IMG/VR virus record: IMGVR_UViG_3300014806_000004
Strand: one strand, 5' to 3'
DNA length: 64,000 nucleotides
Source: a virus
In this document: piece after piece, positions 25,374 to 29,933 of the stretch
Numbering within the stretch: position 1 is the first letter of the stretch
Layout: every line of letters starts with the position of its first letter
The notes under the pieces: generated by a model
Seen by the model: only the letters and a program-made list of their open reading frames with translations
Databases searched by the model: none
What the model was told of the DNA's origin: nothing
Translations under genes and position numbers: made by a program

Positions 25374-25910
25374 ATGTATAGACTTCTTGTGATTGTAGAT
25401 GCGCAGAATGATTTTATTACTGGCTCTCTGGGATCTAAGACAGCGGATGCCGCGGTTCCTAATATCGTTGATCTAATTAAACGATTCTGTTGGGAGGAAA
25501 TTATTTGTACCATGGATACCCATGACAATGATTACTTTGATACTTTGGAAGGAAAAAGACTTCCCATTAAACATTGTATCAAAGCAAGTGTGGGCTGGTG
25601 TATGGATTCCAGAATTGTTGTTGCGTTGAATAACAAATTTAATTATTATGAAAAAGATACCTTCGGTAGTACTGATATGGTCAATGAAGTATACGATTCT
25701 CTAAAAATGAAGAATCCAGAGGAAGTAGAAATTCATATCTGTGGATTTTGTACCGATATTTGCGTTATGGCTAATGCAGTTATGCTTCGTGCGGCGATGC
25801 CAAATACTAGAATTATCGTCCATTCTAGCGCGTGTGCAGGAGTAACTCCAGAATCGCATGAAGCAGCGCTAACTATTTTCAAAGCCCAGCAGATTGATGT
25901 GGAGGATTAA
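25374..25910 (+). CDS. pncA: nicotinamidase / isochorismatase-family hydrolase
   Basis: VDAQNDF and catalytic-Cys motif GFCTDICV. Confidence 0.55.
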   Translation: MYRLLVIVDAQNDFITGSLGSKTADAAVPNIVDLIKRFCWEEIICTMDTHDNDYFDTLEGKRLPIKHCIKASVGWCMDSRIVVALNNKFNYYEKDTFGSTDMVNEVYDSLKMKNPEEVEIHICGFCTDICVMANAVMLRAAMPNTRIIVHSSACAGVTPESHEAALTIFKAQQIDVED

Positions 25911-25914
25911 AAAA

Positions 25915-26727
25915 ATGATTAGTCTAATTAATACACGCAGTCATTGGACAGACGTAATTGAACAAAATCATTTTCCAGATGGTACGCTGCACATTAACAT
26001 GCCTCCCAACTACTTCGATTATGATACGATTGTTTGGGAGTACGAGAATGATGCAGAATTATTTACTCTCATTTGTGTTAAGGGACATTTCGAAGATTTC
26101 CCTGTAAACCTAGATATGCCATATATTCCTCATGCGAGGATGGATCGAGTTCAAGAACTTGAAGATGTATTTACTCTAAAATACTTCTGTCAAGTAATTA
26201 ATAGCCTTCATTTTGATAAAGTTATTGTGCGCGATGCTCATTCTAATGTATCGTTAGCTCTACTTGATAGAGTTATTGATCTTAGTCCAGTTGGAGAAAT
26301 CAAAGAGGCTATTAAGAGAACTGAGGAATATGAAGGAGAAATTCCTATCCTATTTTTCCCAGATGAAGGAGCTATGAAGAGATATTCTACTCCACCCATT
26401 AATTTTCCTTACGCTTTTGGAATTAAGAAAAGGGATTGGTCTACTGGAAAAATTCTTGGTTTGCAGTTAATGAATGAGGAAATCGTTAAAGAGAGAAATG
26501 TCTTAATTGTAGACGATATTTGTTCTCGCGGTGGAACTTTTTATCACGCAGCAAACGCCCTTAAAGAAGCTGGCGCAAAGAATATTTATCTGTATGTAAC
26601 TCATGCAGAGCATACCATGATTGAGGGCGATATGTATAATCAAGATATTGTGAAGAAAATCTTCACTTCTGATAGCATCTTCAAGACAGAGTGGGATATT
26701 AGAGGAAAGGTAGAGATTGTAAGATGA
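25915..26727 (+). CDS. ribose-phosphate pyrophosphokinase-like (PRPP synthetase / possible ADPR-PP synthetase)
   Basis: PRPP-binding loop VLIVDDICSRGGT...THA; SD GGAGGA upstream of ATG 25915. Confidence 0.55.
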   Translation: MISLINTRSHWTDVIEQNHFPDGTLHINMPPNYFDYDTIVWEYENDAELFTLICVKGHFEDFPVNLDMPYIPHARMDRVQELEDVFTLKYFCQVINSLHFDKVIVRDAHSNVSLALLDRVIDLSPVGEIKEAIKRTEEYEGEIPILFFPDEGAMKRYSTPPINFPYAFGIKKRDWSTGKILGLQLMNEEIVKERNVLIVDDICSRGGTFYHAANALKEAGAKNIYLYVTHAEHTMIEGDMYNQDIVKKIFTSDSIFKTEWDIRGKVEIVR

Positions 26728-27173
26728 CTATTGAGAAACTTCAAGAGTTAAAGATTATGGCTCTTAAAAATGGAAATACAAATACAAAGAGGGTACTTTC
26801 TGACATGATTGATGCGTGTCAGAAAGCAGCCATTACTCCAAAAGGAAGAGTTGAATTAACTGAGCAGCTAGTTGATGAAACCCTTATCAAATACCAAAAG
26901 ACAGTACAAGAAATGATTGATACCTGTCCTGCTAGTTATCCTGAAAAATTACATCAGTATCAAGAGGATATGAGGGTCGTAAAGATGTGTGCCCCTCAAC
27001 TTATTACTGATAAGGTAGAAATTGAAACAAAAGTAAGAGAGATCGCTGGAACCGCAGGTATTGATCTCCTCAAAGCAAACCGTGGTGTGCTTATGAAGTC
27101 TGTTTCTATAGAGCTTAAAGGTAAGGCAGATATGAAGATTGTAAGTGCTGTTGTTGGAGGGTTGTTAAAGTGA
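26724..27173 (+). CDS. GatB/YqeY domain protein
   Basis: Collinear with B. subtilis YqeY incl. C-terminal KGKADMKIVSAVVGGLL (cf. KGKADGSLINKLV). Confidence 0.5.
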   Translation: MTIEKLQELKIMALKNGNTNTKRVLSDMIDACQKAAITPKGRVELTEQLVDETLIKYQKTVQEMIDTCPASYPEKLHQYQEDMRVVKMCAPQLITDKVEIETKVREIAGTAGIDLLKANRGVLMKSVSIELKGKADMKIVSAVVGGLLK

Positions 27174-27538: not shown

Positions 27539-27621
27539 TAAAAGCCCTCATAAAGAGGGTTTTTTATTTTTATAAAAATATATGATATAATATATTTAAA
27601 AAATAAGGAAAGGAAGATTTT

Positions 27622-29211
27622 ATGAGTTTCTTTGATGTAGCTCCAATGTTTGCCGCTGACTACTACAAAGTTGGTCATGCTATTAAGATGCAGCCGAAGT
27701 CTGCTTCTATGGTTTATTCTACTTGGACAGCTCGCAGTTATAAGCATCATCCAAATTGCCCTAAGACAGTGGTCTTTGGTCATCAATATACCATCCAGAA
27801 ACTACTTGAATTTTGGCAGACAGAGTTCTTTGATCAGTCAGTTGAGCTTCTTGAACAGGAGTGGAATCATGTAATTAAAAGTACTTTCCATTCTGATTAT
27901 GCGGATTTTACCAAGTTTAAAGAATTGCATAAACTTGGTTATTTACCTATTTCTATCATGGGAGTTCCAGAGGGTACGCTTCTTCCCGTCGGGATTCCAG
28001 ATCATGTAATTTTTTCTAATCATCAAAATTTTGCGTGGCTTCCGCAATTTATCGAAGATCAGTGGAGCGCTAATAACTGGCTCCCCTCGACTTCTGCCAC
28101 TACCGCTTTTTATCGCCGCAAGTTGATTGAGCCTTATGTCAAGACTAGTTGCGACGATATGTCTGCGCTTCCGCATATGTGCGGAGACTTTTCTCTGCGC
28201 GGGCATACAAGCCTTGAAGCGGGTTATATCTCAGGTGCTGCCCATGCTCTTTCTTTTGATAGAACTGCAACCATTGGTTCTAACCTTCTCCTTGAAAAAT
28301 ACTATGGAGCAGATCTTGAGAATAATCCTCCCATGATGGGAACTCCTTCTCTTGAGCACTCTGTTGTTGAACAAGGTGTAGCTTGGATGAAGCAGAAGAT
28401 TACTAATGGAGATTTAACTGAAACTGAGCGTTATCTTTTCTCTAAGGCCGCTTTTGATAATTGGGATATTAACCTTATTGCAGAAATGCTTTTTATTAAT
28501 TATCTTTGCACAGAAGTGCAACCTACAGGAACTATGACCTATGTATCTGATACATATGATTATTGGGGTATTGTATCTAAGGTTCTTCCTATGTTGCACG
28601 ATGTTATTGCAGCAAGAGATGGATGTTTCTCCGTTCGACCTGATAGCGGAGATCCTGTAAAGATTATCTGCGGCGACCCAGATGCTGTACCCGGTTCTCC
28701 TGAGTTTATAGGAACTTTAAATCTTCTAAAAGAAACCTTTGGCGGTGAATTGAATACTAAAGGATATTTTATTCTTCCTTCTTATATTCGTATGATTTAT
28801 GGAGATGCCATTACTCCAGAGATTACTGAAAAAGTTTGCTCTTGGTGCGTTAGAAATAATATCTCAGTATCCAATCTATGTTTTGGAATTGGAGCTTATA
28901 CTTATCAGTATGTAACTCGTGATACTAGAGGCTATGCTATTAAAGCTACAGATTGTATCCTCGGCAATGATGAAATTCAGATTTATAAAATGCCTAAAAC
29001 CGACCCTGGGAAAAAGTCTCCTCGTGGATGTGTTGCAATTTTTAAAGAGGAGAATGGCGATTATTCTTTAGTAGAAAATCTTACTCTTGAAGAATCCATT
29101 GGATATAAGAACAATGTAATGAAATTTAAAGTCAAGAATGGAAGTTTCTGTACGGAGAGCGTAGAGACTATCGAAACTATTAAAGAGAGATTGATGGGAG
29201 AAGTTCTATGA
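27622..29211 (+). CDS. nicotinamide phosphoribosyltransferase family protein (NadV/NAMPT-like; Namat alternative)
   Basis: DYYKVGH, RPDSGDP, IYGDAIT, FGIGAY align with NAMPT signature blocks. Confidence 0.65.
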   Translation: MSFFDVAPMFAADYYKVGHAIKMQPKSASMVYSTWTARSYKHHPNCPKTVVFGHQYTIQKLLEFWQTEFFDQSVELLEQEWNHVIKSTFHSDYADFTKFKELHKLGYLPISIMGVPEGTLLPVGIPDHVIFSNHQNFAWLPQFIEDQWSANNWLPSTSATTAFYRRKLIEPYVKTSCDDMSALPHMCGDFSLRGHTSLEAGYISGAAHALSFDRTATIGSNLLLEKYYGADLENNPPMMGTPSLEHSVVEQGVAWMKQKITNGDLTETERYLFSKAAFDNWDINLIAEMLFINYLCTEVQPTGTMTYVSDTYDYWGIVSKVLPMLHDVIAARDGCFSVRPDSGDPVKIICGDPDAVPGSPEFIGTLNLLKETFGGELNTKGYFILPSYIRMIYGDAITPEITEKVCSWCVRNNISVSNLCFGIGAYTYQYVTRDTRGYAIKATDCILGNDEIQIYKMPKTDPGKKSPRGCVAIFKEENGDYSLVENLTLEESIGYKNNVMKFKVKNGSFCTESVETIETIKERLMGEVL

Positions 29212-29933
29212 CTAATACGGTTACTAAAATTATAGATTGGATTAAAGAGTATTTCATAAAAAACGGGCCGGAGTGTAAAGCTGTTATCGGGATTTCTGGC
29301 GGCAAAGATTCTACAGTGGCTGCGGCTCTTCTTTGTAAGGCTCTTGGCCCGAATCGAGTAATTGCCGTACAAATGCCACAGGGGTTCCAATATGATATTG
29401 ATGTTTCTAATGAGGTAATTGATTACCTCGAAATTACAGAGCATTACAACATCAATATTGGTTCAGCTTGTCAGGAGATTTTCTTGTCTTTGCCCAATGA
29501 TATTAGAATTCAGCCGCAAGTTACAAGTAATGTTCCAGCAAGAGTAAGAATGAATATCCTTTATGCAATCGCCGCGAGCCGTCATGGAAGAGTTGTGAAT
29601 ACTTGCAATAGAAGTGAAGACTATGTAGGCTATTCTACTAAATTTGGAGATGCAGCAGGAGATTTTTCTATTCTCTCTAATTATACTGCCACGGAAGTTA
29701 AAGAAATTGGTATTGAGCTTGGATTGCCAAAGAACTTCATTGAAAAGCCTCCAGAGGATGGATTAAGCGGTTTAACAGATGAGGAAAATTTAGGATTTTC
29801 TTATGATGTCCTAGATAATTTCCTACTTAATGGTATTACTCCTCCATATGAGATATATAAAAACATTGAACAAAGACATAAGAGAAATTTACATAAGATT
29901 TCCCCTATGCCAACTTGTCCATTCTTTTCTTAA
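29208..29933 (+). CDS. nadE: NAD+ synthetase (NH3-dependent)
   Basis: PP-loop GISGGKDS. Confidence 0.6.
   Translation: MTNTVTKIIDWIKEYFIKNGPECKAVIGISGGKDSTVAAALLCKALGPNRVIAVQMPQGFQYDIDVSNEVIDYLEITEHYNINIGSACQEIFLSLPNDIRIQPQVTSNVPARVRMNILYAIAASRHGRVVNTCNRSEDYVGYSTKFGDAAGDFSILSNYTATEVKEIGIELGLPKNFIEKPPEDGLSGLTDEENLGFSYDVLDNFLLNGITPPYEIYKNIEQRHKRNLHKISPMPTCPFFS

Follow-up and report, generated by a model that had tools for sequence, protein, structure and literature searches.

Gene content of the cluster

Which route to NAD+ is encoded by the gene cluster at positions 25374–29933 of the viral record IMGVR_UViG_3300014806_000004, of which a stretch of 64,000 nucleotides (the window) is analyzed here? 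Two of its genes, a homolog of phosphoribosyl pyrophosphate (PRPP) synthetase (Prs) and a Nampt-fold transferase, resemble the pair forming NAD+ reconstitution pathway 1 (NARP1), where Adps converts ADP-ribose (ADPR) and ATP to ADP-ribose pyrophosphate (ADPR-PP) and Namat joins ADPR-PP with nicotinamide to yield NAD+ (Osterman et al., 2024). Two others encode a nicotinamidase and NadE. Judged by its sequences, the cluster is very probably an ADPR-recycling module of the Adps/Namat type; with less assurance, we lean towards a fuller reading, in which it would be a deamidated NARP1, its four enzymes rebuilding NAD+ from ADPR via nicotinate and nicotinic acid adenine dinucleotide (NaAD). The cluster contains six co-directional, tightly packed, intact genes:

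25374–25910, + strand: nicotinamidase, PncA-type, isochorismatase family, 178 amino acids (aa) (PF00857, 3.6e-20)
25915–26727 (alternative TTG start at 25894), + strand: Adps-type Prs homolog, 270 aa (phrog_619, 3.6e-67)
26724–27173, + strand: YqeY/GatB-like protein, 149 aa (PF09424, 7e-8, 33 bits vs. cut-off 27; phrog_1460)
27170–27538, + strand: small protein, 122 aa, with two predicted transmembrane segments (hydrophobic at about residues 50–75 and 80–113)
27622–29211, + strand: Namat-like transferase with an altered base pocket, 529 aa (phrog_448, 6e-131)
29208–29933, + strand: NadE, single-domain, NH3-dependent, 241 aa (PF02540, 3e-46; SGGKDS P-loop)

Pfam, NCBIfam, and PHROG assignments agree with each other, and gene overlaps of 4 nt are seen at three junctions. 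A sequence-only reading of the same DNA had proposed an NAD+ reconstitution cluster of four consecutive NAD genes with an embedded GatB/YqeY gene; all these genes are found at the positions given, on the + strand, and their identities support NAD+ reconstitution. Strictly, however, the run of NAD genes is interrupted, both by the YqeY-like gene and by a conserved 122-aa open reading frame (ORF; 27170–27538) not listed in that reading.

The same reading had named inactive remnants as a finding that would speak against it. We consider a decaying remnant refuted, with hardly any probability left to it: the ORFs are intact and have no in-frame stops; every catalytic motif checked is present; the gene set is kept in relatives at 43–99% identity, and 169 contigs carry members of the protein cluster that includes the exact window transferase. 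Purifying selection acts on all six genes; the ratio of nonsynonymous to synonymous substitution rates (dN/dS) of the cluster genes, calculated against a relative with a transferase identity of 77%, is 0.05–0.25, hence, they are not remnants.

Family assignment of the Prs-like protein and the transferase

The Prs-like protein scores 227 bits with phrog_619 and stays below the cut-off of every NCBIfam Prs model (87 bits vs. 113). It matches Adps proteins of canonical NARP1 phages with 133–155 bits, vs. 66 bits for the best solved Prs. By profile and bit scores, it appears to belong with the phage-rich Adps clade, apart from cellular Prs; between the two options of the sequence-only reading, Prs and Adps, the scores are thus on the Adps side. 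Lys171 and Arg173 of the catalytic loop (KKRD) are conserved in 100% of 228 Adps homologs, and, judging from the conserved Prs loop, the Lys is probably equivalent to the catalytic Lys162 of SPbetaL1.

The transferase matches the SPbetaL1 Namat structures 9w5x/9w5w with 318 bits, NadV of Haemophilus ducreyi with 259 bits, and human NAMPT with about 137–140 bits. Foldseek also ranks the Namat structures first for the AlphaFold2 model of the protein (E 1e-40; pLDDT 86). Lan et al. (2026) define Namat by the Nampt catalytic core and an adenine "selectivity clamp" (GS-X-Phi-X-Phi-X-Phi-TRD plus the SCL residue). The SCH clamp motif of the window protein is GAYTYQYVTRD (424–434), with aromatic Tyr426 and Tyr430 at positions 3 and 7, Thr, Gln, and Val at the Phi positions, an intact TRD, and Ala instead of Ser at position 2. 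The third SCL position, where Arg, Lys, or Tyr is expected, is occupied by Lys41, followed by His42, and aligns with SPbetaL1 Arg40. Conserved clamp residues are Lys41, Tyr426, Tyr430, Thr432, Arg433, and Asp434; the aromatics of the clamp are missing from human NAMPT and H. ducreyi NadV. The Nampt-like core is formed by Phe190, Tyr15, Arg193, His246, Arg339, and Asp341 (in SPbetaL1: Phe189/Tyr15', Arg192, the catalytic His, Arg306, and Asp308), and is invariant in 256 of 256 aligned homologs. The Adps homolog lies two genes upstream of the transferase, within the 10 genes used as the limit for the association of Namat with Adps.

The only NCBIfam match of the transferase is NF006629 (348 bits, cut-off 405). 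A Clostridium homolog scores 576 bits with this model and 23–35 bits with the PncB models TIGR01513 and NF006696. From these scores, the transferase is assigned to the Nampt/Namat branch and not to the PncB branch; clustering with nicotinate phosphoribosyltransferase (NAPRT, PncB), which would have spoken against the sequence-only reading, is not observed, no PncB-type model being matched above its cut-off. That reading had left NadV and Namat open for this gene; Namat is favored by the clamp motif, the bit scores, and the neighboring Adps-clade gene.

The AlphaFold2 model was used for fold identity and for the order of an insertion only. Residues 246–299 are predicted as three helices (pLDDT > 90) inserted straight after the catalytic His; the insertion is present in the long phage forms and absent from the short Clostridium forms and from Namat. 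A divergent transferase of the class described below, in the faecal phage contig MT835544 (locus L256, 3981–5483), has a 9-residue insertion (GVGSFSMQCIEQNGQLKPFTRD) inside the clamp motif; as it interrupts this motif, the donor specificity of the protein might differ.

Substitutions in the pyridine pocket

We scanned every alignment column, without prior choice, in 256 homologs from 255 viral, metagenomic, and genomic loci. Only four columns discriminate two classes of transferases: positions 187, 215, 240, and 242 in SPbetaL1 numbering, all located in the three segments from which the nicotinamide site is built. One class (Ala class) has Ala at position 215 and Ser at position 242 in 56 of 56 proteins; the other has Asp or Glu at position 215 in 200 of 200 and Ala at position 242 in 199 of 200. 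Neither the catalytic core nor the adenine clamp differs between the classes; the clamp is kept in nearly all 56 Ala-class proteins, with Arg in 34 and Lys in 21 of them at the SCL position. No column of the Adps alignment (228 homologs) separates the two classes.

The window protein carries Gly188 (His in Namat), Ala216 (Asp), Thr241 (Val), and Ser243 (Ala), that is, H187G, D215A, V240T, and A242S in SPbetaL1 numbering; further changes are Arg214 (Gly in Namat) and Ala425 (Ser). Canonical Namat, NadV, and NAMPT proteins all share the motif SF-x-G-[TS]-D-[ST]; in the window protein and its relatives, this segment reads SFDRTAT. In the crystal structure of SPbetaL1 Namat, Asp215 and Ala242 are nicotinamide contacts, and the D215A substitution lowers the NAD+ output about 8-fold (Lan et al., 2026). 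The equivalent Asp219 of human NAMPT forms a hydrogen bond with the amide and designates nicotinamide as the substrate, whereas human nicotinate phosphoribosyltransferase has Ser at this position and binds the nicotinate carboxylate by a conserved Arg, R311, corresponding to Arg339 of the window protein (PMC12143786; PMC4442680). As the amide-binding Asp that defines nicotinamide specificity is lost, the transferase is not a standard Namat.

Co-occurrence with nicotinamidase and NadE

The pocket classes differ in their neighbors. Numbers of loci with each gene are:

Asp or Glu pocket, all loci (n = 188): Adps 171, nicotinamidase 0, NadE 0
Ala pocket, all loci (n = 55): Adps 52, nicotinamidase 47, NadE 41
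Asp or Glu pocket, non-redundant loci (n = 103): Adps 102, nicotinamidase 0, NadE 0
Ala pocket, non-redundant loci (n = 21): Adps 21, nicotinamidase 18, NadE 15

The tally of all 255 loci used motif-based pocket calls, ambiguous for 12 of them; alignment-based calls resolved all sequences. The non-redundant set was de-replicated at 90% and required at least 3 kb of flank on both sides; here the Fisher p-values, not corrected for phylogeny, are 6e-19 for nicotinamidase and 7e-15 for NadE, and the Asp/Glu class yields no nicotinamidase or NadE match even at E <= 0.01. Among the transferase loci examined, homologs of both genes adjoin Ala-pocket transferases only.

Within the Ala class, four gene orders are seen (T, transferase; x, another gene), in three clades, each monophyletic in 30 of 30 neighbor-joining bootstraps, and in one more divergent contig:

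Long phage forms and an Oscillospiraceae chromosome: PncA-Adps-T-NadE
Clostridium clade: Adps-PncA-T-NadE
Sphingobacterium group: Adps-T-NadE-PncA
MT835544, the divergent faecal phage contig with the same pocket: Adps-x-T-NadE-PncA

The nicotinamidase of the Sphingobacterium group is from a different, Pnc1-like subfamily; its score with the iterated hidden Markov model is weak (27 bits), and on recheck the ORF matches nicotinamidases only, of the Pnc1 type. Thus, the Ala class spans two nicotinamidase subfamilies. The class as a whole is monophyletic in 6 of 30 bootstraps, and for this reason convergent evolution is not claimed.

Three other human-faecal phage contigs (MT835706, MT835572, and MT835512; loci L257, L258, and L259) encode nicotinamidase homologs; in the flanks covered (at most 7 kb on each side, less at contig ends), neither Adps nor Namat nor NadE is detected. 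As these nicotinamidases stand alone, the association is one-way: an Ala-pocket transferase predicts nicotinamidase, not the reverse.

These data bear on a rival explanation of the cluster, a canonical NARP1 with helpers, in which NAD+ would be made directly from ADPR and nicotinamide, while nicotinamidase and NadE would boost the Preiss–Handler and de novo flux of the host via its PncB and NadD. The intact clamp and catalytic core of the transferase agree with it; Namat homologs are somewhat promiscuous, the SPbetaL1 enzyme also accepting PRPP in vitro; moreover, NadE catalyzes the last step of both host routes, and some phages carry NadE without a nicotinamidase homolog. We nevertheless hold it to be rather unlikely. 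It leaves unexplained why none of the 188 Asp/Glu-pocket loci but most of the Ala-pocket loci carry the two genes, and why precisely the nicotinamide-contacting residues switch; the reduced activity caused by D215A argues against it, and a co-expressed nicotinamidase would consume the substrate of Namat.

Nicotinamidase and NadE

The catalytic residues Asp9, Lys94, and Cys130 of the window nicotinamidase and its metal ligands Asp48, His50, and His67 align with those of the Pyrococcus horikoshii enzyme and of other nicotinamidase structures, and its best matches in PDB are nicotinamidases and isochorismatases; dN/dS is 0.06–0.12. Its score is far under the cut-off of the PncA equivalog model, hence, the substrate is assigned from motifs and context.

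NadE scores 156 bits with TIGR00552 (cut-off 64), has SGGKDS at residue 30 and no glutaminase domain, and shows a dN/dS of 0.05. It matches NH3-dependent NadE structures in PDB at 1e-31, the best match being the short-form 3fiu, which we take to be the NMN (nicotinamide mononucleotide) synthetase of Francisella. Characterized single-domain NadE enzymes are NH3-dependent NaAD amidases, and for the NadE homolog of Francisella, activity as an NMN synthetase has been published (PMC3376133). In two divergent metagenomic loci with transferases about 48% identical to that of the window (L100, 8602–9834; L169, 8554–9780), the NadE ORFs are about 410 aa long and have an N-terminal extension of about 170 aa without a Pfam match.

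The match to 3fiu is one of the points in favor of a PRPP-based salvage. Here the Prs-like protein would make PRPP, and the transferase would form nicotinate mononucleotide (NaMN) or NMN; NadE would then act on NaAD after the host NadD, or as an NMN synthetase followed by a host adenylyltransferase. The Pfam and NCBIfam names, Prs and NAPRT/NAMPT, fit this scheme, as does the use of PRPP by SPbetaL1 Namat. Yet the Prs-like protein is below all Prs cut-offs, much nearer to Adps, and has no position that changes with the pocket class; when purified SPbetaL1 Adps was tested for Prs activity, no product formed; the clamp, needed for ADPR-PP only, is retained in nearly all Ala-class proteins; and no adenylyltransferase is seen among the scanned ORFs of the window or the scanned related loci. 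We regard a PRPP-based route as improbable. For NMN adenylyltransferase in particular, none is found among about 30 window ORFs scanned (64 kb of an approximately 148-kb genome). Given the clamp, the Namat scores and fold, the affinity of the Prs-like protein to Adps, and the lack of this adenylyltransferase among the scanned ORFs, the pair is of the NARP1 type and not NadV with Prs.

Proposed pathway

In the deamidated NARP1 that we favor, the four enzymes would act as follows:

Step 1, nicotinamidase: nicotinamide (from NAD+ cleavage) + H2O -> nicotinate + NH3
Step 2, Adps homolog: ADPR + ATP -> ADPR-PP + AMP
Step 3, transferase: nicotinate (not nicotinamide) + ADPR-PP -> NaAD + PPi (pyrophosphate)
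Step 4, NadE: NaAD + NH3 + ATP -> NAD+ + AMP + PPi

Ammonia released at step 1 might be reused by NadE at step 4. Adps and the transferase would stand in for PncB and NadD of the classical pncA-pncB-nadD-nadE route. The sequence-only reading had nicotinamidase and NadE simply adding a Preiss–Handler branch. This does not hold up well: neither PncB nor NadD is found among the scanned window ORFs or the scanned neighbors in related loci, and both genes are tied to the Ala pocket. They look rather like integral steps of one linear pathway than like a parallel branch.

Several points weigh against the deamidated route. For every Ala-pocket member, the predicted substrate choice is read from four residues and the gene context. 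The hydroxyls of the pocket Ser and Thr could still bind an amide; human NAMPT is able to bind nicotinic acid and NaMN (PDB 6ta0/6ta2), meaning that this Asp does not bar nicotinate altogether. The AlphaFold2 model superposes poorly overall (TM-score 0.43 in global superposition), and the pocket geometry is not readable from it. As 3fiu is the closest structure to NadE, amidation of NaMN is possible. A single origin of the Ala class is conceivable; few independent events could then lie behind the co-occurrence, and the Fisher p-values overstate independence. A local NadE is missing from several Clostridium loci, which could be explained by, and would fit with, a housekeeping NadE elsewhere on the chromosome. 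Finally, the deamidated route costs more ATP than NARP1 and has no demonstrated advantage.

Bacterial loci and NrtR

Ala-pocket loci are also found in a core chromosomal context in Clostridium, Oscillospiraceae, and a Sphingobacterium-type metagenome contig. The genes scanned around the C. intestinale locus are of the housekeeping kind (ThiI, an IscS-like aminotransferase, and HisRS), and those around the Oscillospiraceae locus L176 are NusG-L11-L1. NrtR-type regulators (Nudix plus the NrtR winged helix) adjoin Ala-pocket operons in C. intestinale, C. manihotivorum, and the Sphingobacterium-type contig L158 (L183, 9230–10129; L207, 4692–5582; L158, 10278–10982). NrtR is an NAD regulator with ADPR as the effector; known NrtR operons read pncA-pncB-nadD-nadE, and prs-nadV operons were noted as unexplained (Rodionov et al., 2008). 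Neither PncB nor NadD is seen among the neighbors scanned in two bacterial loci. For Shewanella, Paenibacillus, and Cohnella, the pocket residue in our set is Asp, and the locus encodes neither nicotinamidase nor NadE. A new nicotinate:ADPR-PP transferase, working in a four-enzyme pathway by which gut phages with TAG recoding would rebuild NAD+ and Clostridium, Oscillospiraceae, and Sphingobacterium-type bacteria would recycle ADPR, has, in our estimate, even chances.

The bacterial loci raise the question of purpose. By analogy with canonical NARP1, the phage would likely restore NAD+ when host NADase defenses (such as Thoeris, SIR2, or DSR systems), or the infection itself, deplete it. The same chemistry could serve general NAD+ maintenance, as an auxiliary metabolic cassette rather than a dedicated counter-defense, and this is compatible with the deamidated pathway. 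The chromosomal, housekeeping, NrtR-linked setting of the bacterial versions points that way; NARP2 has been published to raise NAD+ even without a defense system; the window cluster lies in the early region, among genes of nucleic-acid metabolism and tRNA repair; and the PADLOC scan of the cluster gives trivial PRTase-domain matches to ShosT/PsyrT only, with no match tying it to a defense system. On the other side, canonical NARP1 is experimentally anti-defense, its intermediate being seen only with an active NADase system, and ADPR and nicotinamide are the exact products of SIR2, TIR, and SEFIR NADases. A maintenance role is a fair possibility, at less than even odds.

Comparison with known systems

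Like NARP1 of SPbetaL1 and Bas63 (Osterman et al., 2024; Lan et al., 2026), the cluster has Adps near a Nampt-fold transferase with the clamp and the core; the predicted donor, ADPR-PP, is the same, and SPbetaL1 Namat is the closest solved structure. The window class differs in the four pocket substitutions; in the nicotinamidase and NadE companions, never found in the 188 canonical loci examined; in the predicted product, NaAD instead of NAD+; and, in the phage Ala forms, also in G213R, S391A, and the three-helix insertion.

With the NrtR-regulated Preiss–Handler operon of Clostridium acetobutylicum (Rodionov et al., 2008) it shares nicotinamidase as the first and NadE as the last enzyme, the logic of nicotinamide -> nicotinate -> NaAD -> NAD+, and, in the bacterial Ala-pocket versions, the NrtR link. 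However, Adps and the Namat-like transferase take the place of PncB (nicotinate + PRPP -> NaMN) and NadD (NaMN + ATP -> NaAD), and the adenylate part would derive from recycled ADP-ribose rather than from ATP. Chromosomal pairs of a Prs paralog and a NadV-like protein are also known from the NrtR-controlled prs-nadV operons of Shewanella, Acinetobacter, and Cytophaga, with ADPR as the effector (Rodionov et al., 2008), and from the bacterial NARP1 of Paenibacillus foliorum (Lan et al., 2026), such pairs being the counterpart of NARP1 in bacteria; in contrast to the Ala-pocket loci, the Shewanella, Paenibacillus, and Cohnella loci of our set retain the Asp pocket and lack the two companion genes.

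NARP2 (Nampt and NMN adenylyltransferase; in the Vibrio phage KVP40, Nampt and Nmnat/Nudix) is likewise a phage NAD+ reconstitution pathway with a Nampt-fold enzyme, but uses PRPP and the adenylyltransferase, whereas the window has Adps, the Namat-type clamp, and no adenylyltransferase in the scanned ORFs. NARP3 was rejected as the identity of the cluster, as it consists of PnuC and NadR. NARP1-AP, with the Macro-domain ADPR-1''-phosphatase Adpp, and RyDEP-linked NARP1 are precedents for NARP1 operons gaining accessory enzymes that widen their input; these act on the ADPR side with Namat unchanged, whereas those of the window act on the pyridine side and the pocket is changed.

The papers on NARP1, the Namat structure, aRES/NARP1-AP, RyDEP, and NARP3 do not mention nicotinamidase or NadE linked to NARP1, nor nicotinate, except for generic pathway descriptions in the NARP3 paper; a full-text literature search combining ADPR-PP with nicotinic acid adenine dinucleotide yielded nothing relevant. 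The paper on the gut phage phAss-1 lists nicotinamidase only. The proposed deamidated variant of NARP1, for which no published description was found, is computationally well supported. If it is real, the reaction nicotinate + ADPR-PP -> NaAD would be new to NAD biochemistry, and a further phage route of NAD+ reconstitution would stand beside NARP1, NARP2, and NARP3; four substitutions in the pocket would suffice to change which pyridine a Namat/Nampt-fold enzyme accepts; a rationale would be at hand for those NrtR-linked "prs/nadV" operons in which pncA and nadE are present as well; and annotation pipelines and finders of anti-defense genes calling every Prs and Nampt pair NARP1 or "nicotinamide phosphoribosyltransferase" would mis-assign the substrate in the Ala-pocket clade.

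Expression signals and accessory genes

Consensus scans show three signals in the cluster, all on the + strand:

27540–27564, + strand: terminator-like hairpin 3' of the gene of the transmembrane protein
27569–27596, + strand: promoter-like site following this hairpin
29931–29956, + strand: terminator-like hairpin with an 11-bp stem and a T-run, overlapping the NadE stop codon (29931–29933)

The first hairpin and the promoter-like site weakly suggest two transcription units. We treat the YqeY-like and the 122-aa proteins as accessory: the former (dN/dS about 0.09) is found in the sub-lineage of the window only; the latter (dN/dS 0.25–0.48) is kept across this sub-lineage and matches no Pfam, NCBIfam, or PHROG family. 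A 139-aa ORF between the transferase and NadE genes of phAss-1 was considered as the YqeY equivalent and rejected, having no similarity and no Pfam match.

A search for near-identical DNA of the cluster in deposited phages gives no match; the relatives were found by protein. In one of them (L004) the transferase and NadE are 99% identical to those of the window, but the nicotinamidase (3704–4297, vs. 25374–25910 in the window) only 80% (proportion of synonymous differences, pS, 0.59), and this mosaicism indicates recombination inside the cluster.

Genomic context in the phage

The window belongs to a large phage of anaerobes and spans its early/replication region, with an anaerobic ribonucleotide reductase, helicases, and ligases. 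The closest named relative is phAss-1 ("Caudoviricetes code 15 clade", human gut, predicted Clostridia host). There are 22 tRNA genes and a transfer-messenger RNA (4123–4438, tag DNDYFENYFAA) at 180–15983, all on the + strand, including a suppressor tRNA with the CTA anticodon (Sup-CTA, 14850–14925; ARAGORN label "Pyl"). Single in-frame TAG codons are seen in otherwise continuous ORFs:

12061–12825: unannotated ORF pair split by a single in-frame TAG
32186–32749: metallophosphoesterase, in-frame TAG at codon 132
49766–50983: DnaB-like helicase split by a single in-frame TAG
57010–60114: PHP-domain ORF with an in-frame TAG, running on into an 852-aa ORF
61799–63721: NrdD, in-frame TAG at codon 320

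This is consistent with TAG recoding (code 15) that would include early/replication genes and not late genes alone. All six cluster genes end with TAA or TGA and contain no in-frame TAG; hence, their boundaries hold despite the recoding.

The NAD cluster is flanked (23855–25126 and 30014–32749) by a set of the tRNA-repair type, which would counter RNA-targeting defenses: an RNA ligase, a NinI-like metallophosphatase, a Thg1-like tRNA-His guanylyltransferase, an AAA_33 kinase resembling polynucleotide kinase (PNK), and a second metallophosphoesterase. The set is present in the sub-lineage of the window, not in phAss-1-like phages. The metallophosphatase at 30014–30745 was considered as Adpp of NARP1-AP and rejected, being calcineurin-like while Adpp is a Macro-domain protein, and having the RNA ligase, Thg1, and the PNK-like kinase as neighbors; no cluster or flanking ORF has a Macro domain, and the neighboring phosphoesterases are calcineurin-like.

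Among 50,697 deposited phage records, the window nicotinamidase is matched in 7 (phAss-1 and six unannotated faecal contigs); 48 phage records match the window NadE. In the protein database, the long Ala-pocket form accounts for well over 100 clusters; with the window transferase in a cluster seen on 169 contigs, the phage seems to be common in metagenome data.

Two further genes of the window are of interest. Inside the tRNA array, at 7413–8534, lies an AAA/STAND-like NTPase with nSTAND3 and NACHT-like matches and a weak IetA match in PADLOC. An ATP-dependent DNA ligase is encoded at 43163–44269; as the replicative ligases of bacteria require NAD+, one may speculate that the phage ligase lowers the need of the phage itself for NAD+.

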